This document shows positions 4,578 to 22,139 of a stretch of DNA of 31,433 nt, one piece after another. The stretch lies in NCBI GenBank assembly GCA_023252055.1, contig JAHEXP010000015.1:1-31433 (forward strand), given 5' to 3'. The notes under the pieces are model-generated. The model was not told the origin of the DNA. It worked only from the letters and a program-made list of their open reading frames with translations, and did no database searches. Origin of the DNA: Coriobacteriia bacterium. GTDB taxonomy: Bacteria > Actinomycetota > Coriobacteriia > Anaerosomatales > PALSA-660. Both the position numbers and the translations under genes were made by a program. Every line of letters begins with the position of its first letter. The first letter of the stretch is position 1.

Positions 4578-6206
4578 TCAGCCCCGGAACCGGTTGGTTA
4601 CCGGCATCCTGCGGTCCTTGCCGAACGCCTTCGGCGTCACGCGGATGCCGAGCGGCCCCTGGCGACGCTTGTACTCCGCAGCGTCGACCATGCGGGTCAC
4701 CCGCTCCACCGTCGCCCGGTCGGCGCCTCCGGCCACGATCTCGTCCACCGATGCATCGTGCTCCACGTACTCGCGCAGGATCGGATCCAGCACGTCGTAG
4801 GCGGGAAGCGAGTCGGTGTCCGCCTGGCCCGGGCGGAGCTCCGCCGATGGGGGCTTGACGATGCTCGCCACCGGGATCACCTCGCGCAGCCTGTTGCGCC
4901 AGTGCGCGAGTTCGTAGACGCGGGTCTTGTACAGGTCCTTGATGGGGGCGAAACCGCCCACCATGTCGCCGTACAGTGTGGAGTAGCCGACGGAGAGCTC
5001 CGATTTGTTGCCGGTGGCGAGCACGATCCACCCGAACTTGTTGGACAGCGCCATCAGGAGGGTCCCGCGGACCCTCGCCTGCAGGTTCTCCTCGGCAACA
5101 TCCGGATCCAGGTCGTCGAACGAGGCCGCGAGCGTCCCGAGCAGGGCCGAGAACCCCTCCTCGATGGACAGCACGCGGGACTCGATACCGAGGTTACCGG
5201 CGAGCGTGCGGGCATCCTCGATGCTGCCGGGCGACGAGTACCGCGAGGGCAGCATGACACCGTGCACGTGCTCCCGCCCCAGCGCATCCACCGCGAGTGC
5301 CGCTGTGAGCGCCGAATCGATGCCGCCGGACAGGCCGATCACCGCATCACTGAACCCGTTCTTGCGGAAGTAGTCCGACAATCCCACGACGAGCGCCTGC
5401 CAGACCTCCTCGTGCCCTCCCATCAGCGGCTCCTCACGAACCGGCGATGGTGCCGCCGGGACGTCGGCGATGAGCAGATCGGGCGCGAACGCGTGTGCAC
5501 GTCCGATCACCCGACCCTGCGGATCGATGAGCACCGAGCGGCCGTCGAAGACGAGTTCGTCCTGACCGCCCACGAGGTTGCAGTAGACGAGGTGCACGCC
5601 GTTGCGGCTCGCCCGCTCCGACAGCATGTCCTCGCGGTCGCTCCCCTTCCCCGCGTGGAACGGGGATGCTGAGATGTTGAGCACCACTGTTGCGCCGAGT
5701 GCCGCCGCTTCCTCCACGAGTTCCGGCACCCAGACGTCCTCGCAGATCGTCACAGCGCACACCACGCCGTCGGACTCCACCAGAAGCGGGCGGTCGCCGG
5801 GCTCGAAGTAGCGCTCTTCGTCGAACACGCCGTAGTTGGGGAGCCGTCGCTTGTGGTAGACCCCCTGGACCGCGCCACCCGAGAGCACGGCGGCCGCGTT
5901 GTAGAGGTGGCCGTCGGCGGCGTCCACGAAGCCGACGATCGCGATAAGCCCATCGCACTCCAACGCCAGCCGGTCGAGGACGAGGCGCGTGTCGCGCACG
6001 AAACGGGCGCGTCCGATGAGGTCTTCGGGCGGGTATCCCGTGAGCCCGAGTTCCGGCGTGAGCAGGATGTCCGCCCGCTCGATGCGCGCGGTGCGCGCGG
6101 CTGCGGCGATGAGTGCAGAGTTCCCGGCGAGGTCCCCGACGGTGGCGTCGATCTGAGCGAGTGCGATCCGTGGCACGGCTGTCGAATCCCTTCTCGGAAA
6201 CGTCAT
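4578..6206 (-). CDS. nadE: glutamine-dependent NAD(+) synthetase (N-terminal CN-hydrolase domain plus C-terminal NAD synthetase domain)
   Basis: ORF 4578..6293 minus. ...RIALAQIDATVGDL... (nitrilase-like domain), ...GLSGGIDSALTAALA... (PP-loop SGGxDS), ...VLATGNKSELSVGYSTLYGDMVGGFAPIKDLYKT.... The start is ATG 6206 (MTFPRR) or, better supported by an upstream GAAGGGA SD, the GTG at about 6176 (VPRIALAQ). Confidence 0.9.
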   Translation of the reverse strand: MTFPRRDSTAVPRIALAQIDATVGDLAGNSALIAAAARTARIERADILLTPELGLTGYPPEDLIGRARFVRDTRLVLDRLALECDGLIAIVGFVDAADGHLYNAAAVLSGGAVQGVYHKRRLPNYGVFDEERYFEPGDRPLLVESDGVVCAVTICEDVWVPELVEEAAALGATVVLNISASPFHAGKGSDREDMLSERASRNGVHLVYCNLVGGQDELVFDGRSVLIDPQGRVIGRAHAFAPDLLIADVPAAPSPVREEPLMGGHEEVWQALVVGLSDYFRKNGFSDAVIGLSGGIDSALTAALAVDALGREHVHGVMLPSRYSSPGSIEDARTLAGNLGIESRVLSIEEGFSALLGTLAASFDDLDPDVAEENLQARVRGTLLMALSNKFGWIVLATGNKSELSVGYSTLYGDMVGGFAPIKDLYKTRVYELAHWRNRLREVIPVASIVKPPSAELRPGQADTDSLPAYDVLDPILREYVEHDASVDEIVAGGADRATVERVTRMVDAAEYKRRQGPLGIRVTPKAFGKDRRMPVTNRFRG

Positions 6207-6294
6207 GTGCAGGGGGCTGCTCAAGCGTACCATTCGCCACCACTCTCCCGTGAACGGGTACAACCCCATCAAACCGAAGGGAGTGGGTCTCAAG

Positions 6295-6900
6295 ATGGCC
6301 TCGTTCTTCTATACCTCCGATGCGGGTTCTCTACGACGCACATGGGGGCCGTTGGTGGCGTGGGGCACGGTCGTGGCGGCCTTCGGGATCGTGGTCGCAG
6401 GCATGCCGGTCCTCACCGCGAGCATCCTGGTATTCCTCACAGGCATCGGATCCGTGGCAGCCGGGCTCGTGTGGGTGTCGTGGTCGATCTCGCTGCGGCG
6501 TGCGAGCGCGGGGTGGTGGGCGGTCTCCCTGATGCCGGGCGTCCTGCTGCTGGTGTTCGGCGCCTACGCGCTCCTGCAGCCAGGCGCGCTCGCGCAGTTC
6601 CTGTTCCGCGCGGCCGGTGCGATAGCGGTGGTCTGGGGCGTCGCCGACATGGTCGCCTCATGGCGCTGGCGGTCGTTCTTCGGCGTCTGGTGGATCAGGC
6701 TGCTGCGTGGCGTGCTGGTCGCGGGCGTGGGAGCGGTCGTGTTCCTCCTGCCCGTGGCGGGACTGGCGACCGCCGGCCTGCTCCTGGGACTGTGGTTCGC
6801 CGTGATCGGTGCGACGTCCATCGTGCTCGGGCTCGCCGCCCGCCGGCTGCCGAAGTCAGGGGGCGCGGCGGTCGTCGACCGCACCGCGATCGGATCTTAG
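6295..6900 (+). CDS. DUF308/HdeD-like integral membrane protein
   Basis: ORF 6205..6900 plus, likely starting at MASFFYTS (6295) with a GAAGGGAG SD. About six hydrophobic helices with a repeated G-rich helix pattern (AAGLVWVSWSI..., LLVFGAYALL..., AVVWGVADMVASWRW...) typical of HdeD/DUF308. It diverges from nadE. Confidence 0.65.
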   Translation: MASFFYTSDAGSLRRTWGPLVAWGTVVAAFGIVVAGMPVLTASILVFLTGIGSVAAGLVWVSWSISLRRASAGWWAVSLMPGVLLLVFGAYALLQPGALAQFLFRAAGAIAVVWGVADMVASWRWRSFFGVWWIRLLRGVLVAGVGAVVFLLPVAGLATAGLLLGLWFAVIGATSIVLGLAARRLPKSGGAAVVDRTAIGS

Positions 6901-6951
6901 ACACCTCCCCGCTCGGTCCCTGCACCGAGGGGGACTCCGTCCGTCGAAACG

Positions 6952-6979
6952 AAGGCCCGGTGCGAACGCACCGGGCCTT
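6952..6979 (+). terminator. intrinsic terminator hairpin after DUF308 gene (AAGGCCCGGTGCG aa CGCACCGGGCCTT followed by CTC)
   Basis: Perfect 13-bp stem with 2-nt loop about 50 nt after the stop at 6900. The U-tract is weak (TTCTC). Confidence 0.5.
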
Positions 6980-7186
6980 CTCGCGCGCCCGCGATGTCGT
7001 ATGGTGGCGTCGGGGGTCGTTTCGAGGGCGTTTTGGCGTCGCGCCGCCGCGCTACACGGATCCTTACCAGCTTCTGGTCGATTCTTGATACATCCTTGAG
7101 ATGTTCTTATGCGGCGCGACGGTAAGTACTCCCTCAACGCGACAACAGGTTCGCGCGGACTTTCGACCGAGGGGAAGGCACAAGCC

Positions 7187-9433
7187 ATGTTCGATGTGGG
7201 GGTTCTGACGGCGATCGCGCTATGGATCGTCGGGATCATCGTGACCGTCGTGGTCGCGCTCAAAGTGCTCGGAGTTCGGGTCATCCGCTCCGATCAGGTC
7301 GGCGTGGTCGAGAAATGGTGGTCGCCCAAGGGTTCGCTGAAGGACTCGATCATCGCCATGAAGGGCGAGGCCGGCTACCAGCCGGAAGTGCTGCGCGGCG
7401 GTATCCATTTCCGCTCGCCGTTCATGTACCGCGTCCGCGTGATGCCGCTGATCACGATCCCGCAGGGCAAGATCGGCTATGTGTTCGCTCGTGACGGCAT
7501 CCCGATGCAGCCGGAGCAGACGCTCGGCCGCGTTGTGGAGTGCGGCAACTACCAGGACGTGCGCGGGTTCATGGCCAATGGCGGCCAGAAGGGCCCCCAG
7601 CGCTCGATCATCCGCGAGGGCACGTACGCGCTGAACCTGGCGCAGTTCATGGTCATCACGGAAAGCCACGTCTACTACCTCCCGATGGGCTACAAGGAGG
7701 AGGAGTCGTCGATCATGTCGATGGCGACCTACCTCGGCAGCGTCGGCGGGTTCAGCCCCGTGGTCATCAAGGGCGCCGAGGACCGTGTCGGCATCGTCAC
7801 CGTGCACGACGGCCCGTCGCTGCCGATGGGCGACATCATCGCTCCCTCGATCGGCGACGTCGCCGCCGAGCCGGACTATCACAACAACTTCCAGAACCCT
7901 GAGGCGTTCTTGAAGGCCGGCGGCTTCCGTGGGCGTCAGTACCAGGTCCTCACGGAGGGCACGTACTTCATCAACCGCCTGTTCGCGACCGTCGAGCTCA
8001 TCGAGAAGACGATCGTCCCCATCGGCTACGCCGGCGTAGTCGTCAGCTACATCGGGCCGAAGGGCGCCGACGTCTCGGGCGAGGAGTACCGCCACGGCGA
8101 ACTCGTCACGACCGGCTTCCGCGGCGTGTGGAACGAAGCGCTCATGCCGGGCAAGTACGCGTTCAACACGTACGCCGGCAAGGCGATCCTCGTCCCCACC
8201 ACGAACATCATCCTCAAGTGGATCAAGGGCGAGACCGGCGCGCACAACTTCGACGCCAACCTCTCGGAGATCGGGCTCATCACCAAAGACGCGTTCGAGC
8301 CGTCCCTGCCGCTGTCCGTGGTCATCCACATCGACTATAAGAAGGCCCCGCTCGTGATCCAGCGCTTTGGCGACATCGCGATGCTCGTCAACCAGACGCT
8401 CGACCCGATGGTGTCGAGCTACTTCAAGAACGTGGGCCAGACCAAGACGCTGATCGAGCTCATCCAGCAGCGAAACGAGATCCAGGCCCGAAGCAGCGAG
8501 GAGATGAAGGTGCGTTTCGCCCGATACAACCTCGAGTTGGAAGAGGTTCTCATCGGCACTCCGCGCTCCCCCGAGGGCGACACGAGGATCGAGACGATCC
8601 TCACCCAGCTGCGCGACCGGCAGATCGCCTTCGAGAAGCTCGAGACGTTCGACAAGCAAAAGATCGCCGCCGACAAGGAGCGCGAGCTCAAGCAGGCGAT
8701 GGCCGTCGCCGAGCAGCAGACGATGCTCACGCAGTCCGAGATCAACATCCAGGTGCAGGAGAACCAGGGCCGCGCCGAGCTTCAGCGGGCCGCCCAGGAC
8801 GCCGAGCGCGTGAAGACGCTGGCTCGAGGCGACGCCGAGAAGGTCAAGACGCTGGCCGCCGGTGAGGCCGAGAAGGTCAAGCTGCTGGCAGGCGCCGAGC
8901 AGGCGCGCATGAAGATGATCGCCGACGCCGAGGCCACCCGCATCCGCCTCACCGCGGAAGCGGACGCCGACCGCGAGGCCCGCGTGGGCATCGGCCGCGC
9001 GATAGCCATCGAGGAGCAGGTCAACGCATACGGCGGCCCGCAGCTCCAGCTGGCCCAGGACGTCATGACGAAGATGGCGCAGGCCATCGAGACGTCCAAG
9101 GTGCCGATCGTCCCGCAGACGGTCGTCAACATGGGCGGCGGCGAGGGCGGCGACACGACCGCGAGCAACAACGCGTTCGGCCTGCTGCTGGCACTCCTCA
9201 CCTCCGAGAAGCTCGGCGCTCCCATCGTCGGCGAGAAGCCGGATGCGAAGAGAAGCGCCCAGGTCACGGCGCTGCGAAGCTCAGTGATGGAAGGCGCGAC
9301 GAGGACTCCGGAGAACACCGCGGCAGCTGCCGCGGAGCCCTCGAAGCCGGCCGCGAAGGTCGAGCGCCCGATGGAGTCCCAGTCGCTGCCGCAGACGCAC
9401 TCGAAGGACGCAGCGGAGAAGCCGGCCAAGTAG
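7187..9433 (+). CDS. flotillin-like SPFH/Band-7 family protein (YqiK-like) with N-terminal TM helix and long C-terminal EA-rich coiled coil
   Basis: ORF 7109..9433 plus; probable start MFDVGVLTAIALWIVGII (7187) with a GGGGAAGG SD. SPFH region ...VVEKWWSPKGSL...IIREGTYALNL..., a second SPFH-like segment, then the flotillin coiled coil with ...AERVKTLARGDAEKVKTLAAGEAEKVKLLAGAEQARMKM... repeats. The alternative start is the 7109 ATG. Confidence 0.85.
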   Translation: MFDVGVLTAIALWIVGIIVTVVVALKVLGVRVIRSDQVGVVEKWWSPKGSLKDSIIAMKGEAGYQPEVLRGGIHFRSPFMYRVRVMPLITIPQGKIGYVFARDGIPMQPEQTLGRVVECGNYQDVRGFMANGGQKGPQRSIIREGTYALNLAQFMVITESHVYYLPMGYKEEESSIMSMATYLGSVGGFSPVVIKGAEDRVGIVTVHDGPSLPMGDIIAPSIGDVAAEPDYHNNFQNPEAFLKAGGFRGRQYQVLTEGTYFINRLFATVELIEKTIVPIGYAGVVVSYIGPKGADVSGEEYRHGELVTTGFRGVWNEALMPGKYAFNTYAGKAILVPTTNIILKWIKGETGAHNFDANLSEIGLITKDAFEPSLPLSVVIHIDYKKAPLVIQRFGDIAMLVNQTLDPMVSSYFKNVGQTKTLIELIQQRNEIQARSSEEMKVRFARYNLELEEVLIGTPRSPEGDTRIETILTQLRDRQIAFEKLETFDKQKIAADKERELKQAMAVAEQQTMLTQSEINIQVQENQGRAELQRAAQDAERVKTLARGDAEKVKTLAAGEAEKVKLLAGAEQARMKMIADAEATRIRLTAEADADREARVGIGRAIAIEEQVNAYGGPQLQLAQDVMTKMAQAIETSKVPIVPQTVVNMGGGEGGDTTASNNAFGLLLALLTSEKLGAPIVGEKPDAKRSAQVTALRSSVMEGATRTPENTAAAAAEPSKPAAKVERPMESQSLPQTHSKDAAEKPAK
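8798..8995 (+). repeat. in-frame 33-bp (11-aa) tandem repeats encoding the flotillin EA-repeat coiled coil
   Basis: Units gacgccgagcgcgtgaagacgctggctcgaggc / gacgccgagaaggtcaagacgctggccgccggt / gaggccgagaaggtcaagctgctggcaggcgcc ..., about six units, the first three best conserved. Confidence 0.5.
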
Positions 9434-11773: not shown

Positions 11774-12030
11774 CAACAGAAAAAGCCCTCGTCCTGTTAA
11801 GGGACGAGAGCTTTCGGCTCCCGCGGTACCACCCTCGTTGTCCGACCCCTCGGCCGGACCACTCGTCTCAGCGACACTCCGGCACACCCGCTGCCTTCAT
11901 GCCCGGTCCCTTGTATCGGCGGGCCTCCGCCGGAACTACTCAGCCTGCCTGCGGCCTTTGCTCCGGAGCCTCAAGGGACCATTCACGCCGACCGCTCACG
12001 CCGGTTTCCACCAACCACCGGCTCTCTGTG
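11774..12030 (-). promoter_or_regulatory. T-box riboswitch leader (Stem I GA motif through T-box/antiterminator and rho-independent terminator) controlling trpB2
   Basis: The minus-strand RNA contains the exact T-box consensus AGGGUGGUACCGCGG (plus 11819..11834). It is directly followed by an 11-bp terminator stem AGCUCUCGUCC/GGACGAGGGCU and UUUUUCUGUU (plus 11774..11811). Upstream: AGAGAG (K-turn/GA motif, about 12021..12027), GAGUAG and GCUGAG elements consistent with the Stem I AG-bay/distal loop. A long GC-rich Stem I/II region lies between. Distance from GA motif to terminator is about 255 nt, typical of T-box leaders. Confidence 0.75.
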
Positions 12031-12155: not shown

Positions 12156-12902
12156 TCACGCCTCCGGATGGCGCGAGCGGTACAGCAGGTACGCGTAGGC
12201 GTACGTCACGACGAGCATCACCGCCAGCGACCCGAGGAGCACGAACAGCCCGTACGTGGACGGCAAGACCGAGGAGGCCACGGTGAGCAGGCCGACCGCA
12301 ACGAACAGGTATCCGCCGAGCCGGTTCGTCTTGCTCCACACGACCTCGTCGGAGAGCGTCCAACTGACGCGAACGCCGAAGGTCCAGTTCTGCTTCACGG
12401 TGGTCATGAAGTTCCCGATGAGCGCGAACAGAAGGCCCACCGCGACGAGGATGACCTTCGCCACGTCGAAGCGGTTGTCGTAGGCCGCCAACAGGGTCGC
12501 GGCGAACACGACCGCCTCCAGGCCCACGACGGCGTCGATGACGATGTTGTACGCGCGGAACGACATCTTGAGGTTGCGCCGTTTGGGATCCAGGAAGGGC
12601 ACCACAACCAGCAGGGCGTAGACGCCTGCGGCGATGAGCGGCAGCAGGAACACGCTTCCGAACGACTTGGCGGAGAACGCGTCCGGCGCGCCGCTGATAC
12701 CCCAGTGCGTGGGGATCGGACTCGGTAGCGAGGGGTAGAGCACCGCGCCCGCGACGAACATCGCGGCCACGATCAGCAGCGGCAACTTGGTGAAATCGCG
12801 CAGCTTCGGAGGGGCGGGCAGTTCGTCGGGCGGAGCTGCGCCGACCGGTACCTGCCCGGGTGAATCCTGTGCGTCGCTCCCGAACTGACGGTCACTCGTC
12901 AT
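12156..12902 (-). CDS. DUF1648/SdpI-family membrane protein
   Basis: ORF 12156..12902 minus. After a Pro-rich N-terminus: ...LLIVAAMFVAGAVLYPSLPSPIPTHWGISGAPDAF... (DUF1648 P-x-HW motif), then four more helices (...NIVIDAVVGLEAVVFAATLL..., ...ILVAVGLLFALIGNFMTTVKQNW.FGVR..W) typical of SdpI/YhfL-like immunity/signal-transduction proteins. Confidence 0.6.
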   Translation of the reverse strand: MTSDRQFGSDAQDSPGQVPVGAAPPDELPAPPKLRDFTKLPLLIVAAMFVAGAVLYPSLPSPIPTHWGISGAPDAFSAKSFGSVFLLPLIAAGVYALLVVVPFLDPKRRNLKMSFRAYNIVIDAVVGLEAVVFAATLLAAYDNRFDVAKVILVAVGLLFALIGNFMTTVKQNWTFGVRVSWTLSDEVVWSKTNRLGGYLFVAVGLLTVASSVLPSTYGLFVLLGSLAVMLVVTYAYAYLLYRSRHPEA

Positions 12903-13028
12903 CGCGCATCTCCTCCTCCGGAGTACAGAGCATTTCGAGCACGAACGACATGGCGTCGCGGAAAGCCGTCGTGTCGAGCCGGTACGCGGTCCCCTGGCCG
13001 CGGCGCTCGGCGTGCGTGAGCCCGATCC

Positions 13029-14066
13029 TCAGGGCGTCGGCGCTCCCGCCGCACCCAGTACTTCGCGCAGCCTCCCGAGGCGCTCCATCTCGGGATCGTC
13101 TTCCGGCGCGTAGCCGAAGCCGGCCCAGCAGAAGAAGAGGGCCGAGTACGCCTCCCCCGCCCCGGGGACCGTGTTGTTCGCTTCGAGAACGTGTGCGAGA
13201 GCGGTGAGCATCTGCGCGGGGTCCTTCAGCAGGAGCATGCCCTCTGCGTCGGCCTTCTCGGCGGCAGCGAGGGCGGCACGTTCGTGCCCGGCCATCAGGA
13301 CCTCGGTCAGGACCACGCCGAGGAACCCGAGTATGAACACGCCGATGACGGCTTCCGGCGTCTCGCGAGCGACTCCCGCGGACGCGCCACCGGTGAGCGC
13401 CTCTCCCCATGTGGGCTCGTCCTGCAGCAGGGCGTCCTTATGGAGCTGCTGCGCGCGCTGCCCCCAGATCGGGCCCATGATCGCCGAGAGCACTGTGGCC
13501 CACAAAGTGTCGCGTGCCGCCACGCGCGCCATCAGGTTGGCGAAGACGGCACGCTGCTCGTCGCCGCTCAGGCGCTCTGCGAACCCGCGCGTGACGCCCA
13601 CCACGATCGCGTCGTCGTGCAACCCGAGGGCGAACGCGTTGACACGGTCGCAGTCCTCGATGAGCCACAGCCACGGCGCCCCGGGCCGGCCGATCGCGAT
13701 CGCCATGTCGTGCAGCGCGGACTCGGTCACCGGAAGGGTGCCGCGCTGCGTCGGGATCGCGCCGAAGAGGCCTGCGAGGCGCGCCTCCGGCCGAGAGAGC
13801 ACCCGCACGACGTGCAGGATCGCGAGCGCGGCGCCCAGCAGGAACGCGCCGGCCATCAGCCACGGCGTCAACGAGAGGAACTCGCCACCGCCCCGGAACG
13901 TCATCACCCACAAGAGCACGCCGCCGGCGCCCACCATCAAGGCCAAGGACAGGGCCGCCGCCACGACGAACAGCGTCACGAACATCGCAACCTTCATGCG
14001 GTTGCGATCGATGCGGTCCCACAGCGGCTCCATGCGGCCGCGGCGGGCGCGCGTCCGGTCGGTCAC
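13029..14066 (-). CDS. M48/HtpX-like integral membrane protein with HExxH zinc motif replaced (predicted catalytically inactive pseudo-peptidase)
   Basis: ORF 13029..14066 minus. Its start overlaps the hisIE stop by 4 nt. Two N-terminal TM helices, then ...[44 protein letters not shown]... This aligns with HtpX ...NAFATG.....VAV..GLL.....E..AVIAHEISHI..GD, but HE..H is replaced by NL..R. Further TM helices follow ([22 protein letters not shown]). Confidence 0.55.
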
Positions 14067-14755
14067 GCGCCGCTCCCCGGCAGGCGCCCGGCCATCTCGG
14101 AGGCGAGATCTTCGGGGGTGATGCCCTCGCGGGCCAGCACGACCAGCAGGTGGTAGAGCAGGTCGCCGGCCTCGTAGCGCGTCTGAGCGACGTCGTGGTC
14201 GCGGGCCGCGATGATTACCTCGCCCGACTCCTCCGCGATCTTCTTCAGGAGCTTGTCCTGCGGGCCGCTCAGGAGCTTGGCCGTATAGCTGCCTTCCGGG
14301 AGATCACGCTTGCGCTGCTCGAGCACCGCTGCGAGTTGGCTGAGGACGTCGCCGAGCCGGAGGGGTACTCCGCCTGCATCCTGTATCTGGCCGGCCGGGG
14401 CCGGGGCCGTGGCGACGTCGAGGCTGCGGTAGAAGCAGGTCCTCTGGCCGGTGTGGCACGCGCCGTCGCCGCGTTGTTCGACCGTGACGAGCAGAGCATC
14501 GCCATCGCAGTCATAGCGGACTCCCACGACGTCCTGGACGTCGCCGGAGCTCTCGCCCTTCATCCAGTACGTCTGGCGGCTCCGGCTCCAGAACCACGTC
14601 CGGCCGCTCTCCAGTGTGCGCTCAAGGGCGGTGCGGTCCATCCACGCGAGCATCAGCACCTCGCCGGTGCCTCGCTGCTGCACGATGGCCGGCAGAAGAC
14701 TGCCCTCGCCCCATGCCAGATCGTCGAGGGCCAGCTCGTCACGTTCGAGGTCCAT
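14063..14755 (-). CDS. hisIE: bifunctional phosphoribosyl-AMP cyclohydrolase / phosphoribosyl-ATP pyrophosphatase
   Basis: ORF 14063..15211 minus. Real start [12 protein letters not shown] at 14755 with a GAGGAAG SD. ...[49 protein letters not shown]......[19 protein letters not shown] is HisI. The C-terminal ...GSYTAKLL....[14 protein letters not shown]...A.DHD......[11 protein letters not shown]... is HisE. Confidence 0.9.
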
Positions 14756-14763
14756 GGTCTTCC

Positions 14764-15579
14764 TCAGTCCTTCCACGTCAGCGGCGCCGGGCGCACGGGT
14801 GTATCGGGCACGTCGACGAGCCGGACGGGCACGCCCGCGGACGCCATCGCGGCCTTGATGTCGCGCACGCGGAACTTCCCGTAGTGCAGGGTCGACGCGG
14901 CGAGCACCGCGTCCGCGTCGGCTTCGATCACGACCTCGGCGAAGTCCTCGAGCCTGCCTGCTCCCCCGCTCGCGATCACCGGTACGCCGACGGCGCGTGT
15001 CACCGCGCGCGTGAGCGGGATGTCGTAGCCCTCGTTGGTGCCGTCGCGGTCCATGCTCGTGAGCAGGAACTCCCCCGCCCCGAGCGACTCGGCGTGACGC
15101 GCCCACTCCACCGCGTCCATCCCGGTGTTCGTGCGGCCTCCGGAGACGAAGACCTCCCAACGGTCCCGCCCTCCTGCCACCTTGCGCGCATCGATCGCCA
15201 CCACGATGCACTGCGATCCGTAGATGCGGCTCGTGGTGGTGATGAGTTCGGGCGAGGCGACCGCCGCCGAGTTGAGCGAGACCTTGTCGCAGCCGGCCTT
15301 CAGCATCGCGCGTATATCGTCGGCCGAGCGCATGCCTCCGCCCACCGTGTACGGGATGAAGACCTCATCGGCGGTGCGCGCGGCCACACCCAGCATCGTG
15401 GGACGGTCCTCGTGGGTGGCCGTGATGTCGAGGAACACGAGCTCGTCGGCGCCCTCGGCGTCGTAGAAGCGAGCGAGCTCGACCGGGTCGCCGGCGTCGC
15501 GCAGGTCCACGAAGTTCACGCCTTTGACGACGCGGCCCTCATGTACGTCGAGACACGGTATGACGCGCTTCATCAGCAT
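14764..15579 (-). CDS. hisF: imidazole glycerol phosphate synthase, cyclase subunit
   Basis: ORF 14764..15705 minus. True start [20 protein letters not shown] (15579). ...[12 protein letters not shown]...VGGGMRS..D......[12 protein letters not shown]... is the HisF (beta/alpha)8 signature. Confidence 0.9.
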
Positions 15580-15586
15580 CGGCGGA

Positions 15587-16315
15587 TCACCCGACGGCCC
15601 GGGCGGTGGAGATCGCGGTCTCGAGGTCGATCGTGCCTTCGTACAGCGCACGCCCCACGATGATGCCCTCCACGCCGTGCACCGCGGCGAGCGCCGTGAT
15701 GTCATCGAGGGTCGTCACGCCGCCGGACGCGATGATCGCGGCATCCGTCGCCAGCGCAAGCGCACGGTAGGCGCGCACGTTCGCGCCCTTCTGCATACCG
15801 TCGAGCGAGATGTCGGTGTAGACGAGCCGGTTCACGCCGAGAGCGCCGAGCTCGGCGACCACGTCGGCGACGTCCGATTCGGTGCCCTGCTTCCAGCCCT
15901 CGATCGCGACGCGCCCGTTGCGCGCATCGACGCCGGCCACGATCCCCGGCCAGCGGAAGCACGCGCGCCGCACGAAGGCCGGGTCGGTGATGAGCGCGGT
16001 GCCGAGTACCGTGCGGGCGACTCCCGCATCGTAGAGCCGCTGCAGCGTCCGCTCGCTTCGGATACCGCCGCCGACCTGGATCGGCACGTTCACCGCGGAT
16101 GCGATCGCCTCGACCGAGGCGATGTTGACCGGCTCGCCGCTGAGCGCGCCGTCGAGGTCCACCACGTGGATGATCTCGGCGCCGGACGCCTCGAAGCGCT
16201 TTGCCTGGTCCACCGGGTCGTTGTTGTAGACGGTGACCTCGTCGAAACTGCCCTGCTTCAGGCGGACGACGCGGCCGGCAAGGATGTCGATCGCAGGCAG
16301 GATCTGCGCGCTCAC
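15587..16315 (-). CDS. hisA: ProFAR isomerase HisA (possibly PriA-type bifunctional HisA/TrpF)
   Basis: ORF 15587..16651 minus. The upstream part is an out-of-frame overlap with hisH. Probable GTG start [22 protein letters not shown] at about 16315 overlaps the hisH TGA (GTGA). ...VVDLDGA..G...N...VE.I......[10 protein letters not shown]... is the HisA signature. Confidence 0.85.
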
Positions 16316-16953
16316 AGGTGCGACTCCTCGGTCACGATGGCGGCGAATTCGCGCAGGAGCGCGAGTCCGCACGCGGACGACTTCTCGGGGTGGAACTGCA
16401 CGCCGTACACGTTGCCGCGGCGCACCGCAGCGGCGAGCGGTATCCCGTACGTGGTGGTGCCGATGACCACGGTCGGATCGTCCGGCACCAGATGATAGCT
16501 GTGCACGAAGTAGAACGCGCTGCCCTCCGGCACACCGGCGAACAGCCGGCTGGCGCGCGGATAGTCGACGGTGTTCCAGCCGATGTGCGGGACCTTCACA
16601 TCCGCTTCGATGCGGCGGCACTGTCCCGGCACGAGGTCGAGGCCCGCCCACTCACCGTCTTCGAGGCCGACCGTCGCAAGAAGCTGCATACCCAGGCAGA
16701 TCCCGAGCACGGGCACGCCGGCGGCCGCTCGCTCCAAGAGAACCTCCCGCAGCCCCGAGGACGCGAGGTTGGCGGCCGCGTCGCGGAACGCGCCCACGCC
16801 GGGCAACACGATGCCGGCCGCGCGCTCGACAACCCGCGGATCGTCGGTGACGGTCACGCCCTCCACGCCGGCGGCGGCCAGCCCCTTCTCGACGCTGCGC
16901 AGGTTGCCCATGCGGTAATCGAGTATCGCGATGTTGGGCAGGGCGTCGCTCAT
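16312..16953 (-). CDS. hisH: imidazole glycerol phosphate synthase, glutamine amidotransferase subunit
   Basis: ORF 16312..16953 minus. MSDALPNIAILDYRMGNLRSVEKGL...LPGVGAFRDA...VPVLGICLGMQLL (Cys nucleophile) ...HIGWN...YFVHSY. Confidence 0.92.
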   Translation of the reverse strand: MSDALPNIAILDYRMGNLRSVEKGLAAAGVEGVTVTDDPRVVERAAGIVLPGVGAFRDAAANLASSGLREVLLERAAAGVPVLGICLGMQLLATVGLEDGEWAGLDLVPGQCRRIEADVKVPHIGWNTVDYPRASRLFAGVPEGSAFYFVHSYHLVPDDPTVVIGTTTYGIPLAAAVRRGNVYGVQFHPEKSSACGLALLREFAAIVTEESHL

Positions 16954-16981
16954 GACCCGTCCCGTCCGGGAGCGGCGGGCG

Positions 16982-17569
16982 TCACAGGACGCCCTTGGTC
17001 GACGGCACGCCGGTCACCCGGGGATCGAGTTCCACCGCCTCGCGCAGTGCGCGGGCGAGCGCCTTGAACGCCGCCTCCACGATGTGGTGCGCGTTGTCGC
17101 CGCTGACCTCGTGCAGGTGCAGGGTGATGCCGGCGTTCACCGCGAGCGCCGCAAGGAACTCACGGGCCAACGTCGTGTCGAACGTTCCGATGAACTCGAT
17201 CGGCACCTCGACATCGTAGGTCAGCGACCCGCGGCCTGAGATGTCGACCGCTGCGAGTACGAGCGCCTCGTCCAGAGGAACCGCAGCCGATCCGAAACGC
17301 CGGATGCCCGCGCGATCGCCGAGGGCCGAGGCGAGCGCCAGCCCGAGGCAGATGCCGGTGTCCTCCACCGTGTGATGCGCATCGACCTCGAGGTCGCCCC
17401 GGGCCTCGACCGAGATGTCGATGAGGGAGTGGCGGCCGAGCGCGTCGAGCATGTGATCGAAGAACGGTACGCCGGTGGCGACGGACACCTTCCCGGTGCC
17501 GTCCAAGTCGATCTCGAGGATGACCGAAGTCTCGTTGGTCTCACGCTCGATGCGTGCGCTGCGTGCCAT
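16982..17569 (-). CDS. hisB: imidazoleglycerol-phosphate dehydratase
   Basis: ORF 16982..17569 minus. ...RIERETNETSV.LEIDLDGTG...TGVPFFDHMLDAL..HSLIDISV.A.GDLEVD.HHTVEDTGI.LG... is the IGPD signature. Confidence 0.92.
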   Translation of the reverse strand: MARSARIERETNETSVILEIDLDGTGKVSVATGVPFFDHMLDALGRHSLIDISVEARGDLEVDAHHTVEDTGICLGLALASALGDRAGIRRFGSAAVPLDEALVLAAVDISGRGSLTYDVEVPIEFIGTFDTTLAREFLAALAVNAGITLHLHEVSGDNAHHIVEAAFKALARALREAVELDPRVTGVPSTKGVL

Positions 17570-17609
17570 TGCCCGGCCTCTTTCCGTACGTCGTCGAAGA
17601 TGCGGGGGA

Positions 17610-18758
17610 TCAGTCGAGCGGGCCGGACTCGCCTACGGCCGAGTCGAGTTCATCGCGGCTGGTGGTGCCGAACATGTCGCTCGCGCGGCGTTCGGTCATC
17701 AGGTGCTCCATCGCCTTCAGGAACGCCGAGTTCTCCGCCATCGAACCGATGCTGACGCGCAGACAGTCCTCAAGGCCGGGGACGCGGGACAGGTCGCGCA
17801 CGAGGATGCTGTGCGAGTGCAGCAGGTCGCGCCAGACCGCGGCTGCGCGGTCCACGCGGAACAGGACGAAGTTCGCTTCACTGCGGAAGACCTTGACGCC
17901 CGGGATCTGTGAAAGCCCATGCTCGATCACGTCGCGCTGCCGCAGCAACTCCTGGATCTGCGACTCGAAGACGACCCGCTCCCGGAACACGAGGCCCGCC
18001 GCCCACTGGCTGAACCGGTCGACGGAGTACGGCTGCCGGACCTTCGTCAGCTCCATGACGACGTCTTCGTGCGCGAGCAGGTAGCCCACGCGCAGCCCGG
18101 CGAGCGAGAACGCCTTACTGAACGTACGCAGGATGACGAGGTTCGGGTGCCGCTCCATGTGCGGCCTCATCGTGTGCCGCGAGAACTCGAAGTACGCCTC
18201 GTCCACCAGCACCAGCGCGTCGGTCGCCTTGAGCACGTCGATGAGGAACGTCTCGGGCGCGATGTTGCCGGTGGGGTTGTTCGGGTGCGAGATCATCACG
18301 ATATCGATGTCGCCCAGTGCGAGCCGCTCGAAGACCGCCCGCTCGTCGACGGTGAAGTCCTTCTCACGGCGCGGCACCTCTGCGATCGTCGTCCCCGTCA
18401 GGCGGGCGTCGATCTCGTACATGGCGAAGGTCGGCGGCAGGTTGAGCAGCGTGCGCCCCGGGCCGCCCCACGCGAGCATGAGGTCGAATATCAACTCGTC
18501 GCCGCCGTTGCCCACGAGCACGTTGGCGGGATCCAGCCCGTTCGCCTCGGCGATCTGCGCGCGAAGCTGCGAGGCCATCGGATCCGGGTAGCGGTTGAAC
18601 GGGAACGTCGGGAGCCGCTGCGCCATCGTCGCCAACAGTTCGTGCGGCAGGTTGGACGGGTTCTCGTTCGCGGCCAAGTTGATATCGACGCTCGGCTCGC
18701 GGGCATCGTAGGCGGACATGTCGGCCAGGTCCGGGCGCGGGGGGCGGAGGGCGCCCAC
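17610..18758 (-). CDS. hisC: histidinol-phosphate aminotransferase
   Basis: ORF 17610..18758 minus. ...INLAANENP..LP..L.........NRYPDP....L...IA......P.NVLVGNG.DE.I.......G... and ...RTFSKAFSLAGLRVGY... (PLP Lys) indicate a class II aminotransferase. Alternative start at MSAYDAR (18719). Confidence 0.9.
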   Translation of the reverse strand: MGALRPPRPDLADMSAYDAREPSVDINLAANENPSNLPHELLATMAQRLPTFPFNRYPDPMASQLRAQIAEANGLDPANVLVGNGGDELIFDLMLAWGGPGRTLLNLPPTFAMYEIDARLTGTTIAEVPRREKDFTVDERAVFERLALGDIDIVMISHPNNPTGNIAPETFLIDVLKATDALVLVDEAYFEFSRHTMRPHMERHPNLVILRTFSKAFSLAGLRVGYLLAHEDVVMELTKVRQPYSVDRFSQWAAGLVFRERVVFESQIQELLRQRDVIEHGLSQIPGVKVFRSEANFVLFRVDRAAAVWRDLLHSHSILVRDLSRVPGLEDCLRVSIGSMAENSAFLKAMEHLMTERRASDMFGTTSRDELDSAVGESGPLD

Positions 18759-18761
18759 GGC

Positions 18762-20099
18762 TCAGGCCTCCCCGTCGAGCGCAGCGTCGGCCTCGGCTTC
18801 GGCGTCGGCCTCGGCGGCGAGCTCGAGGCGCAGCGCCACAGCGTCCGCGTGAGCATCGAGGCCCTCTGCGGATGCGAGCGTGATCACCGTGGCGGCATCG
18901 GCTTCGAGGGCCGAGCGAGAGTACGAGATGACCGATGACTTCTTCATGAAGTCGTCGACGGACAGCGGGCTCGAGAAGCGGGCGGTACCTCCGGTGGGGA
19001 GGACGTGGTTCGGGCCCGCCACGTAGTCGCCCACCGACTCCGGGGTCCACGGACCCAGGAAGATGGCGCCGGCGTTGCGCACCTGACCGAGAAGCTCGAA
19101 CGGCTCGGCCATCATGATCTCGAGGTGCTCCGGCGCGATCGCGTTCGCTACATCGATGGCGGCCGACTCGTCCTCGACCACGACGACAAGGCCGTTGTCG
19201 GCAAGGCTGCGGCGGATGATCTCCGATCGCGGCGCCTCGGCGAGCAGCACCTCCAGCGCCTCCTCGACCTCGTCGGGGAGCGTCGGGTCGCACGTGACGA
19301 GGAACGTCTGCGCGTTCGGATCGTGCTCCGCCTGGGCCATCAGGTCGATGGCGACGAACGCCGGCTCGGCGGTCTCGTCAGCCACCACACACACCTCGGA
19401 GGGACCGGCGAGCATGTCGATCCCCACGTCACCCACGACGAGCTTCTTCGCCGCTGTGACGTACGCGTTGCCCGGTCCGGTGATCTTGTCGACGCGCGGG
19501 ATGGAGCGGGTGCCGAACGCGAGCGCCGCGATCGCCTGCGCGCCGCCCACCTTGTAGATCTCGGAGACGCCGGCCTCGGCGGCCGCGGCCAGCACGTAGG
19601 CGCTCACGGTGCCGTCCTTCGCGGGCGGCACGACCATCGCGATCTCCTCGACACCCGCGACCACGGCGGGTATCGCGTTCATGAGCACGCTTGAGGGGTA
19701 GCTGGCACGACCGCCGGGCACGTAGATGCCCACGCGGCGCAACGGCGTGACCTTCTGGCCGGTGAAGATGCCCTCCTGCGTCGTGAACCACGACTGCGGG
19801 ACCTGGCGCTCGTGGTACTGCTCGATCGATGCGGCGGCGGCTGCGAGGGCGTCGCGGAACTCCACCGGCACGGAGGCGACCGCCGCCTCGATCTCCTCGC
19901 TCGTGACGCGAAGGACCGGCACGTCGACGCCGTCGAACTTCTCCGTGTACTCGCGCAGCGCGTCGTCGCCGCGCTGGCGGACGTCTTCGACGATGCGCGC
20001 CGCCACCGATAGGACCTCAGGATCCACGCCGCCGGCAGGGCGCAACGTACCTTCCGGCAGCATCCGGCCCCGCGCGAGTTCGACCCGTCTCATGATCAT
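18762..20099 (-). CDS. hisD: histidinol dehydrogenase (with acidic low-complexity C-terminal tail)
   Basis: ORF 18762..20099 minus. ...YTEKFDGVDV..LRV...E...A.......DALAAAAASIEQYHERQ... and ...GPSEV.VVAD..A.PAFVA.DL.AQAEHDP.A...LVT... are HisD signatures. The tail ...LELAAEADAEAEADAALDGEA is low complexity. Confidence 0.9.
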   Translation of the reverse strand: MIMRRVELARGRMLPEGTLRPAGGVDPEVLSVAARIVEDVRQRGDDALREYTEKFDGVDVPVLRVTSEEIEAAVASVPVEFRDALAAAAASIEQYHERQVPQSWFTTQEGIFTGQKVTPLRRVGIYVPGGRASYPSSVLMNAIPAVVAGVEEIAMVVPPAKDGTVSAYVLAAAAEAGVSEIYKVGGAQAIAALAFGTRSIPRVDKITGPGNAYVTAAKKLVVGDVGIDMLAGPSEVCVVADETAEPAFVAIDLMAQAEHDPNAQTFLVTCDPTLPDEVEEALEVLLAEAPRSEIIRRSLADNGLVVVVEDESAAIDVANAIAPEHLEIMMAEPFELLGQVRNAGAIFLGPWTPESVGDYVAGPNHVLPTGGTARFSSPLSVDDFMKKSSVISYSRSALEADAATVITLASAEGLDAHADAVALRLELAAEADAEAEADAALDGEA

Positions 20100-20764
20100 G
20101 CGAGCACTCCCCCTCCGTCCGCCAGCGCCGCGTCCTGCAAGCGGCGGGCGATTTCCGTCACACGTTCGGCGTCGATCCTCATGGCCACCGGGTTCGCGAC
20201 GAACCGGGCGCTCGAGTCCATGACGTCCTCCACGATACGCAATCCGTTCTCCCGAAGGGTGGTTCCCGTTGCCGTGATGTCGACCACACGGTCCGCGAGG
20301 CCCACCAGCGGGGCGAGTTCGATGTTCCCGTGAAGCTTCACGAGCTCCACCTGTATGCCCTTGGCGGCGAAGTGCGCCTCGGTGATGCGCGGGTACTTCG
20401 TCGCGACCCTGATCACTCCCAGGCGGCGGTACGAGCTCTCGACGTCCTCCGTGGCGCCTTCACGCTCCGCGACCACGAACTTGCATGCACCGAAGTACAG
20501 GTCCGCGAGCTCCGCCACATCCAGTGCGGCCTCGGCCAGAACGTCCGCCCCTGCGATGCCGACATCAGCAGCGCCGTAGGCGATATACGCCGGGATATCG
20601 GTGGGCTTGCAGATGATGAACCGCATGTCCGCGGTGTCGATGATGAGCTGACGGCCCGGGTCGGCGAGCGCGCCGGTCTCGACGCCGGCACGGCTCAGTA
20701 TCTCGATCGTTCCCGGAAAGAGCGCTCCCTTGGGGACCGCCATGCGCAGTCGCGTCTCAGCCAT
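20096..20764 (-). CDS. hisG: ATP phosphoribosyltransferase, short (HisZ-dependent) form
   Basis: ORF 20096..20818 minus. Real start MAETRLRMAVPKGALFPGTIEILSRAGV at 20764, with ATG overlapping the hisZ stop (TGATG). Length about 222 aa, lacking the C-terminal regulatory domain of long HisG. ...RFIICKPTDIPAYIAYGAADVGIAGADVL... is the HisG signature. Confidence 0.9.
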   Translation of the reverse strand: MAETRLRMAVPKGALFPGTIEILSRAGVETGALADPGRQLIIDTADMRFIICKPTDIPAYIAYGAADVGIAGADVLAEAALDVAELADLYFGACKFVVAEREGATEDVESSYRRLGVIRVATKYPRITEAHFAAKGIQVELVKLHGNIELAPLVGLADRVVDITATGTTLRENGLRIVEDVMDSSARFVANPVAMRIDAERVTEIARRLQDAALADGGGVLA

Positions 20765-22095
20765 CACAGGCCCCCATCCGTCATCGGAGCAGTGCTCTCG
20801 GCATCCGAGGCCGCACAACGCCCTGTAGGGGCCATGGCGAGCGTCGGAGGCGCCGTTGGCACGCTGATGTCCTCACTGCCGCCGTCCGACGTCCGGTGGG
20901 CCGCGCCCTCACCGGCCAGCGCCCACATCGCGGAGCCTGCCTCGCGCGCTTCGCACTCGACGGCTGCCGCCTCAGCGGACGAGGTCATGCGGACGCGCCA
21001 GCCCTGCGCGCGCAGGCGTGCGGCGAGACGTACGACGTCGAGCGGGGCCCCGCCCACGACCACGTCGAGGCCCCGCACCGGGACCGAGATCCCCTGCCCA
21101 GCCAGCGCGATCATCACACGCTCTAGGGAAAGGGCGAACCCGGCAGCCGGCATCGGAGCGCCGAAGGCAGCCAGCACGTCGTCGTAGCGGCCGCCGCCGC
21201 CGAGAGGGAGACCCAGGCCCGGCGCGTACGCCTCGACGATCATGCCGGTGTAGTAGTCGAACGAGCGCAGTATCCCGAAGTCGACCCGCACGCGCGCGGC
21301 TGCGCCAGCCGCCTCCAAGAGGTCCCAGGTGGCTTCGAGCGCGTCGAGCGACGCCGCACATCCGACCGCCCCCACCGCGGCACGGCATGCTGCGATCGCC
21401 TCGCGCCCTCCCGCGATCCGCACCACCGCGCGCAGCGCATCGCCCGCCGCGGGAGCGACGCCCGCCTCACCGGTCAGCGCGTCGAACGCGACGAGGTTGC
21501 GCGAGTGCGCCGCCGCCAGCAGGGACTCTGCCCACGATCGGCCGGCTCCTGCGGCGTCGATGAGCGCCTTCAGTACCGCGACCGTTCCGATGCCCACGGT
21601 GAAATCGGGCAGGCCGGCGGCGGTCAGTGCGTCCACGAGCACGCACACGACCTCCGCGTCGGAGGCAGGGCCGTTCACCCCCAGGAGTTCCACGCCGAGC
21701 TGCGTGAACTGGCGGGCCTCACCGCGCAGGGAGGCTTGCTCGCGATACACGTCGGCCGTATAGCAGATGCGCTGCGGACCGGTGTCGGCCGAGAGGCGTG
21801 AGGCCGCGAGGCGGGCGATCGGCAGCGTCATCTCAGGACGGAGCGCCAGCAGCGAGCCGTCGAGGTCGACCATACGGAACGCGGTCCCCTGAAGCGTGGC
21901 GCCCGCGGCCGTCTCCAGGGTGGCGTACTCTTCCACCGCCGGTGTCTCGACGCTGCGGTACCCGAAACGGGCGAACGCGTCGGAGACCGCTGCGGTCACC
22001 GCGCCGCGCTCGGCTGCTTCGTCGTAGAGGACATCGCGGAATCCTCGAGGTGTCACGGGGCGCATCTGCGTGCCTTCCCAGGTTCGTGTCGCCAT
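20764..22095 (-). CDS. hisZ: ATP phosphoribosyltransferase regulatory subunit (HisS paralog) with C-terminal extension
   Basis: ORF 20764..22116 minus (tool start is a GTG). Candidate starts are ATG 22095 (MATRTWEGTQ) or ATG 22065 (MRPVTPRGFRDVLYDEA). The latter matches the class II aaRS-like N-terminal P.G..D.L..E motif. ...FRMVDLDGSLLALRPEMTLPIARL... is HisS-like motif 1/2 without full catalytic conservation. About 440 aa, 50 aa longer than typical HisZ. Confidence 0.8.
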   Translation of the reverse strand: MATRTWEGTQMRPVTPRGFRDVLYDEAAERGAVTAAVSDAFARFGYRSVETPAVEEYATLETAAGATLQGTAFRMVDLDGSLLALRPEMTLPIARLAASRLSADTGPQRICYTADVYREQASLRGEARQFTQLGVELLGVNGPASDAEVVCVLVDALTAAGLPDFTVGIGTVAVLKALIDAAGAGRSWAESLLAAAHSRNLVAFDALTGEAGVAPAAGDALRAVVRIAGGREAIAACRAAVGAVGCAASLDALEATWDLLEAAGAAARVRVDFGILRSFDYYTGMIVEAYAPGLGLPLGGGGRYDDVLAAFGAPMPAAGFALSLERVMIALAGQGISVPVRGLDVVVGGAPLDVVRLAARLRAQGWRVRMTSSAEAAAVECEAREAGSAMWALAGEGAAHRTSDGGSEDISVPTAPPTLAMAPTGRCAASDAESTAPMTDGGL

Positions 22096-22139
22096 CGTGT
22101 GCACGCGGACGTGCACACTCCGGACGGTCGGTTCGGTGC

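Follow-up and report, generated by a model that had tools for sequence, protein, structure and literature searches.

The subject of this analysis is a gene found at the 3' end of a histidine operon in DNA from a Coriobacteriia bacterium (GenBank assembly GCA_023252055.1, contig JAHEXP010000015.1, positions 1 to 31,433), the whole stretch of 31,433 nucleotides (nt) being called hereafter “the window”. On the minus strand, the gene order is dnaE, a hisZ-like gene, hisG, hisD, hisC, hisB, hisH, hisA, hisF, hisIE, the gene under study, a gene for an SdpI membrane protein, a T-box leader, and the gene of a TrpB2-like pyridoxal phosphate (PLP) enzyme. The product of the gene under study is a real, conserved membrane protein with the M48/HtpX fold, from which the zinc-binding and catalytic residues are missing, and it is called below the pseudo-peptidase. 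Its main elements, and the operon to which it is attached, are as follows.

13029 to 14066, minus strand: coding sequence of the zinc-less, HtpX-like (M48) membrane pseudo-peptidase, an open reading frame (ORF) of 345 amino acids (aa) with a GTG start and a TGA stop.
13524 to 13541, minus strand: A176-N177-L178-M179-A180-R181, counterpart of A-H-E-x-x-H, read directly as GCC AAC CTG ATG GCG CGC and placed by alignment to 3cqb and to HExxH-bearing relatives.
13632 to 13640, minus strand: NAF edge strand N143-A144-F145, the substrate-binding beta-strand of M48 proteases.
13239 to 13259, minus strand: helix E270-K-A-D273-A-E275-G276, which in active M48 enzymes bears the Glu that is the third zinc ligand, and the “AD”.
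14063 to 14066, minus strand: GTGA, the overlap of the pseudo-peptidase GTG start with the hisIE TGA stop, read directly from the sequence.
14063 to 14755, minus strand: hisIE (bifunctional PRA-CH/PRA-PH, PF01502 and PF01503; NCBIfam HisIE model 225 bits, cutoff 187), the last histidine biosynthetic gene.
14764 to 22116, minus strand: hisZ-like, hisG, hisD, hisC, hisB, hisH, hisA and hisF, upstream and co-directional, identified with Pfam and in the same order in 55 loci and in locus L082.

An M48/HtpX-like protein had been proposed at this place from the sequence alone, and both sequence profiles and the predicted fold upheld the proposal. The pseudo-peptidase scored 25.8 bits with the Pfam model PF01435 (Peptidase_M48, gathering cutoff 20.3) over residues 116-243; for comparison, a paralog, L067, scored 36.2 bits. 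NCBIfam HtpX equivalog models matched residues 15-312, with a best score of 41.3 bits versus a cutoff of 355 (NF003425, for example). As the protein fell far under the cutoffs of all seven such models, it does not qualify as an HtpX equivalog. An AlphaFold2 model built from an alignment of 78 sequences had a predicted local distance difference test score (pLDDT) of 86.4 and a predicted template modelling score (pTM) of 0.84. Its structural matches included ZMPSTE24, the M48 peptidase 3c37, BepA, Ste24p, BlaR1 and minigluzincins, and Foldseek agreed. Membership of family M48 is thus indicated both by the profile score and by the gluzincin/minigluzincin core fold, with its edge strand, active-site helix and glutamate helix. 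The protein should nevertheless be filed as a non-peptidase homologue of M48B and not as HtpX, because it lacks the defining catalytic feature and scores below the HtpX equivalog thresholds. Its identity as a zinc-less pseudo-peptidase is, in our opinion, highly secure.

The HExxH motif of active M48 zinc metallopeptidases is absent. In its place, the first zinc ligand His is replaced by N177, the catalytic Glu by L178, and the second zinc ligand His by R181. A phmmer comparison with the PDB aligned this pseudo-motif with “deaeavlAHEvsHiangd” of the HtpX domain 3cqb, and hmmalign with the nearest HExxH-bearing relatives gave an identical register, so that the three substitutions given in the original prediction (N, L and R) were correctly located. 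A true HExxH elsewhere in the protein was ruled out: the sole other His-Glu pair, H261-E262 (“GHERAAL”), is not an HExxH and stands at the end of the last transmembrane (TM) helix.

To place the altered site among homologues, a word-indexed set of 5.8 billion proteins was searched, which returned 317 homologues, and the best 120 (45-100% identity) were examined. HExxH was present in none of the 120, whereas F-A-N-L-x-x-R was present in 118, the two exceptions being CANLMAR (P0048) and LANIMAR (P0105). The degenerate motif is therefore conserved in related genomes. In the 78-sequence alignment A176, N177 and R181 were invariant, and L178 was at least 90% conserved. Mean column conservation was 0.81 for the pseudo-motif helix and 0.95 for the EKADAEG helix, versus 0.62 for the whole protein. 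These two helices are among the best conserved segments, which indicates, as far as an alignment can, that the degenerate site is under purifying selection. With its catalytic residues gone, and with the gene and its altered site conserved across species, the protein has the character of a pseudo-enzyme; judged from its residues, N-L-x-x-R in place of H-E-x-x-H, it cannot act as a zinc metalloprotease.

One his-linked ortholog (L065:6001-7017, OW818687.1) reads T-A-H-L-I-A-L at the motif, with the first His present and the otherwise invariant Arg replaced by Leu. Members of several distant clades read A-H-L-x-x-R, and these, together with L065, could represent intermediates in the loss of the zinc site.

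Other elements of the M48 scaffold are retained. N143 and A144 of the edge strand were invariant in the 78 sequences and F145 at least 90% conserved, and the predicted model places a beta-strand at residues 144-147. The equivalent strand of BepA, N105-A106-F107, touches the substrate and is required both for proteolysis and for chaperone-like activity (PMC8423444). Of the NAFA.G and GLL-type framework originally described, the NAF part is kept; the “GLL” element is RGF here, and only its glycine, G161, is invariant. The helix at 270-276 was the most conserved segment, with K271, D273, E275 and G276 invariant and E270 at least 90% conserved; E255 and H261 were likewise invariant within the his-linked clade. 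E270 of A-E-K-A-D aligns with the Glu of E-(Y/F/L)-A-D of active relatives, so that the position of the third zinc ligand is kept, a point on which the original prediction was silent. E270 alone forms no zinc site, because the two His are absent. Strongly hydrophobic segments span residues 23-57, 63-92 and 235-261; helix 186-215 is amphipathic only, and the N-terminus carries eight Lys and Arg residues. A C-terminal tail, ...RLREVLG, is conserved and specific to the zinc-less family. Domain searches revealed no ligand-binding or transporter-like feature in the pseudo-peptidase.

The gene is tightly joined to hisIE. The four-nucleotide overlap of its start with the hisIE stop had been described as of the ATGA type; the overlap stands, the start codon being GTG and the overlap GTGA. 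A Shine-Dalgarno-like GGGGAG lies 6 nt upstream of the start, inside hisIE, and the probable ATG start of hisIE itself, at 14755, lies 8 nt past the hisF stop. Given this overlap, a terminator would not fit between hisIE and the gene. On the minus strand no terminator-like site was found between hisIE and the pseudo-peptidase gene, nor between the latter and the SdpI gene, and the first one downstream is the T-box terminator at 11815 to 11781. At the other end of the operon (20096 to 22116, minus strand), a gene resembling histidyl-tRNA synthetase (PF13393, 450-aa ORF) is followed by a short-form hisG (240-aa ORF), which is a HisZ/HisG arrangement; this hisZ-like gene starts only 117 nt downstream of dnaE, a gap too short for a T-box leader. 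The hisZGDCBHAF-IE genes cover the canonical histidine steps with the exception of histidinol-phosphatase, for which no directed search was made.

Conservation of this linkage was scanned with one genome per species. Eighty loci were kept, of which 60 belonged to the his-type clade (39-72% identity), 56 of them with usable upstream sequence. In 55 of these 56, hisD-C-B-H-A-F-IE lay directly upstream on the same strand, which bears out the original placement of the gene at the 3' end of the operon. The exception was L040, in which the ortholog has left the his operon and is preceded by a gene of the metallo-beta-lactamase fold and a GGDEF gene. Counted from the hisIE stop, the first possible start lay at −4 nt in the four closest relatives (L001, L002, L003 and L005) and at 0-17 nt in most others; a few larger values came from split tblastn matches and are not meaningful. 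In two loci, L045 and L049, insertions of 1-2 kb follow hisIE. A far more divergent member, P0152, lies between hisIE and trpE-trpGD-trpC, and because it too occupies this place, the position at a his/trp junction looks ancestral, as judged from gene order. Same strand, overlapping start and stop, no room for a terminator and conserved linkage together assign the gene to the his operon, and suggest that it is co-transcribed with hisZGDCBHAF-IE.

The pseudo-peptidase belongs to a wider family. When 1.84 billion cluster representatives were searched with a profile, 8505 matched at E≤1e-3 and 84 at E≤1e-30, and the top 150 were inspected. The first 90 or so representatives were all devoid of HExxH and shared A-x-L-x-x-R, with N, H, T, S, A or V at the first x (FANLMAR, FAHLVAR, FASLLGR and ATLVAR are examples). 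Relatives with an intact AHExxH, aligned column for column, started only at E of about 1e-26. In the sequences compared, the constant features of the zinc-less family are thus the change of the catalytic Glu to Leu and of the second His to Arg. The third-ligand position, kept in the his-linked clade, is variable in remoter zinc-less clades (I, A, K, H or L), which fits with loss of the metal site. All named members came from metagenome-assembled genomes (MAGs) of Coriobacteriia/Actinomycetota.

Among the 80 loci, 20 carry members of a second clade, 32-44% identical over the best segment, and in many cases the same genome has a his-linked copy as well. Its members also lack HExxH, and read A-(T/A/V/M)-L-x-A-R. 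In 17 of the 20 loci (L054-L058, L061, L066-L069, L071, L073 and L075-L079, the paralog being at about 6000-7100 in most), the gene comes after ruvB on its strand and closes the series yebC-ruvC-ruvA-ruvB. The FAHLVAR clade and P0175 were linked to neither his nor ruv, and the contexts of the zinc-less clades outside the his- and ruv-linked ones (a toxin-antitoxin-rich island; an acetyltransferase/GreA region; a dnaX-recR region, on the opposite strand) had no shared theme. Because paralogues follow ruvCAB or stand alone, the function of the scaffold is not intrinsically tied to histidine, and what recurs is a place at the tail of some housekeeping operon. Seven long members of 520-565 aa (P0122, P0130, P0131, P0139, P0141, P0144 and P0146) have a C-terminal extension of about 170-200 aa without any Pfam match. 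Domain fusions were considered as a hint to function and set aside, a weak zinc-ribbon match in P0122 being the sole domain match in these extensions.

Downstream of the pseudo-peptidase, two further features were identified.

12892 to 13028, minus strand: 3' remnant, of about 43 codons, of a gene for an ArsR/SdpR-family repressor, 63% identical to the ArsR-family protein of L002 (intact, 96 aa) over its residues 54-96.
12156 to 12902, minus strand: gene for an SdpI/DUF1648 membrane protein (PF07853 and PF13630).

The SdpI/DUF1648 assignment made originally is correct, and the distance to the SdpI start is 126 nt instead of the 127 nt first given. This spacer is the in-frame 3' remnant of the repressor gene. 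In L002 and L003, SdpI is preceded by an intact 96-aa ArsR-family gene that has a promoter-like sequence of its own as well as the palindrome TTAGACAT.T..CTAA. DNA alignment with these two loci revealed that a deletion in the window has removed the promoter-like sequence, the operator palindrome and the 5' part of the gene that encodes the helix-turn-helix (the first 53 codons or so). The SdpR/SdpI-type module, in which an ArsR repressor gene lies immediately upstream of SdpI and overlaps it, is thus intact in L002 and L003 and broken in the window. ArsR and SdpI genes were found downstream in only about 8 of 55 his-linked loci. A role of SdpI as a conserved functional partner was rejected: the pair occurs in only those 8 or so loci, SdpI normally has its own repressor, and that repressor is truncated in the window. 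The SdpI gene of the window is an incidental neighbour, which by now probably depends on read-through.

What follows the gene varies among the his-linked orthologs: a PQQ propeller in 22 loci, a trypsin-like protease in 7, trpE/trpGD in about 15, and the ArsR-SdpI pair. The propeller, of PQQ/BamB type and lipoprotein-like, is encoded directly after the gene or one gene further on (L012:6444-8150, L019:7062-8162 and similar). The trypsin-like protease, which comes first in its 7 loci, is secreted, and has a C-terminal extension as well as a TM helix. The window encodes neither of these two envelope proteins. Taken together, the downstream neighbours are suggestive of envelope functions, inconsistently so.

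Further downstream, a T-box leader (RF00230; 11797 to 12069, minus strand), with a terminator hairpin at 11815 to 11781 on the same strand, precedes the gene of the TrpB2-like PLP enzyme (ATG at 11674). At the Rfam gathering threshold there was no match in the window; the leader surfaced only in the E-value search, with 89.4 bits versus a gathering score of 93 (E 1e-19). Read by eye, its candidate specifier is UGG (Trp), after the GAA of the specifier loop.

Comparison with known systems helps to frame a possible function. HtpX (MEROPS M48B), a zinc endoprotease bound to the membrane in E. coli and other bacteria, acts together with FtsH in membrane-protein quality control. The best sequence matches of the pseudo-peptidase are the HtpX equivalog models over residues 15-312. 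The two are alike in size and, by prediction, in layout: a pair of TM helices at the N-terminus is followed by a cytoplasmic domain that holds the NAF strand and the active-site helix, by a hydrophobic region, which in HtpX is a second hydrophobic hairpin, and by the E-x-A-D helix. The pseudo-peptidase differs from it by N-L-x-x-R in place of H-E-x-x-H, by scores far below the cutoffs and by the C-terminal tail. It is also fixed in the his operon, and would not be heat-shock regulated as HtpX is. BepA (YfgC), a periplasmic M48 protease with a protease-independent chaperone-like activity, shares the NAF edge strand. However, BepA is a soluble protein with a TPR domain, in which HExxH is kept and His-246 serves to switch the activity, whereas the pseudo-peptidase is membrane-embedded and its catalytic site is permanently missing. 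Ste24/ZMPSTE24 (M48A) and BlaR1/MecR1 (M56) are more remote (6-18% identity): they are active HExxH enzymes with a different number of TM helices, and have a chamber (Ste24) or a sensor domain (BlaR1). Outside the fold, iRhoms and Derlins are membrane pseudo-proteases that embody the same concept as FtsHi, the inactive M41 FtsH homologues of chloroplasts. Like the pseudo-peptidase, FtsHi proteins are a conserved membrane protease scaffold without catalytic residues, and they act by protein binding (PMC11266112). FtsHi, iRhoms and Derlins differ in being eukaryotic and of unrelated folds and families. By analogy, the pseudo-peptidase would come nearest to an HtpX/BepA that is permanently “protease-dead”. 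M48 goes unmentioned in a 2024 review of pseudo-metallopeptidases (PMC11266112). Literature searches for M48/HtpX pseudo-proteases, and for membrane genes fixed in Coriobacteriia his operons, found no specific description of the family, in keeping with the original view that a pseudo-peptidase embedded in a his operon is uncharacterised.

From these data we infer the following function. The protein would be a membrane-anchored, HtpX-derived pseudo-peptidase that keeps the M48 fold, including the NAF edge strand for substrate binding and the helix, rich in Glu and Asp, that bears the third zinc ligand in active enzymes; also kept are the N-terminal pair of TM helices and the hydrophobic helix past the former active-site helix. 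The invariant Arg181, which replaces the second His, probably pairs with E270 and D273 of the acidic helix and so holds the former active site in a metal-free state. At the cytoplasmic side of the membrane, extended polypeptide segments would bind by strand addition, and be held, shielded or handed over without being cut. The protein could in this way serve as a holdase, as an adaptor, or as a regulator of membrane-protein quality control. Transcription with the his operon and translational coupling to hisIE would supply steady housekeeping expression and not denote a step of histidine synthesis; this view is taken because the paralogous zinc-less clade hangs in the same way on the 3' end of ruvCAB. 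The departure of L040, the ruv-linked paralogues (17 of 20) and the unlinked FAHLVAR clade and P0175 were all counted in favour of a general over a histidine-specific role.

For the whole of this proposal, a non-catalytic, polypeptide-binding or regulatory membrane protein with housekeeping expression from the his operon, our belief is evenly balanced. The mechanism taken separately, polypeptide binding or quality control, is put forward with some hesitation. Several points weigh against the proposal. The case for co-transcription is drawn from sequence. The topology of the C-terminal half is uncertain, as only three segments are strongly hydrophobic. Finally, the junction with hisIE is nearly universal despite repeated rearrangement downstream, which could reflect selection for a his-related function instead of simple hitch-hiking for expression.

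In place of a free-standing holdase, the non-catalytic scaffold could be dedicated to one active membrane protease, FtsH or a genuine HtpX, as its subunit or regulator, or else be one half of a heteromer with the ruv-linked paralog; either would be comparable to FtsHi or iRhoms. SPFH proteins scaffold membrane proteases, as HflKC does with FtsH, and the window has a gene for one of them (SPFH/Band-7 domain, 774 aa; 7109 to 9433, plus strand) at 3.6 kb from the pseudo-peptidase, as L001 has one nearby too. Both paralogues are present in at least eight genomes, for example OW818687.1 (L054 and L065), UBA2286 (L024 and L055) and UBA2184 (L026 and L056). Moreover, pseudo-metallopeptidases often regulate or scaffold their active relatives (PMC11266112). 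However, none of the adjacent genes is regularly that of a protease, as the trypsin-like one is confined to 7 loci, and OY968780.1 and OY969691.1, the closest complete-chromosome relatives among the 80 loci kept, have no paralog, so that a heteromer is not obligatory. We consider a dedicated protease subunit rather unlikely.

Alternatively, the linkage itself may be functional, and the protein specific to the histidine or tryptophan pathway, as a membrane sensor or regulator of the transport of histidine or of an intermediate, or as a tether for His enzymes. The strength of the junction speaks for this: it is kept in 55 of 56 genomes, whose proteins range from 39 to 72% in identity, and the spacer is tiny or negative, while the downstream genes vary, and divergent P0152 again lies exactly between hisIE and trpE. 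N177, furthermore, is peculiar to the his-linked clade, the ruv-linked clade having T or A there. Yet paralogues with the same signature follow ruvCAB (17 of 20 loci) or stand alone, L040 lies outside the his operon, L045 and L049 tolerate 1-2 kb after hisIE, and no ligand-binding or transporter-like feature was found. Conservation is, in addition, confined to one class (Coriobacteriia and relatives), so that phylogenetic inertia and translational coupling could explain it. A pathway-specific role is on this balance quite unlikely. In the most far-reaching reading, an undescribed and diversified Coriobacteria family of zinc-less HtpX pseudo-peptidases, marked by A-x-L-x-x-R and a retained NAF strand, would sit on his and ruvCAB tails, and the his-linked member would couple the state of amino acid biosynthesis to the handling of membrane proteins; it might, for instance, bind or gate a membrane protease, or a membrane protein related to histidine or tryptophan. 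We regard this reading, too, as quite unlikely.

That the protein is still a hydrolase, with a non-canonical site made from the acidic helix (E270, D273, E275), H261, E255 and R181, with or without another metal, is very improbable. Some pseudo-enzymes have proved to catalyse other reactions, and E255, H261, K271, D273 and E275 are invariant, with E270 at least 90% conserved, in the his-linked clade. But the general-base Glu is Leu in essentially every family member, E270 is not kept in the distant zinc-less clades (I, A, K, H, L), and no M48 member is known to work without HExxH. The intact reading frame, the 317 homologues with no HExxH in the 120 examined, the high-confidence model, and a degenerate site conserved above the rest of the protein refute both a sequencing error and the decay of a normal htpX into a pseudogene.

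The proposal of a non-catalytic, polypeptide-binding or regulatory membrane protein thus concerns a zinc-less clade of a known family, whose operon pattern is unusual and whose function is unproven. For annotation, the current labels “Zn-dependent protease with chaperone function” and “M48 family metalloprotease” are almost certainly wrong about “protease” when applied to the zinc-less family, and A-x-L-x-x-R offers a simple rule for flagging its members. A pattern of fixed attachment to his and ruv operons is unusual and lends itself readily to testing, and at least one relative, Coriobacteriaceae bacterium EMTCatB1 (L023), carries a strain-type rather than a MAG label. Bacterial membrane pseudo-proteases have hardly been explored. 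If the coupling of amino acid biosynthesis to membrane-protein handling were true, the his-linked protein would be the first M48 pseudo-protease of bacteria for which a regulatory role is defined. More generally, since a substrate-binding strand like that of BepA is kept, the zinc-less family may be a natural “protease-dead” HtpX, which could reveal the non-cutting roles of the M48 scaffold.

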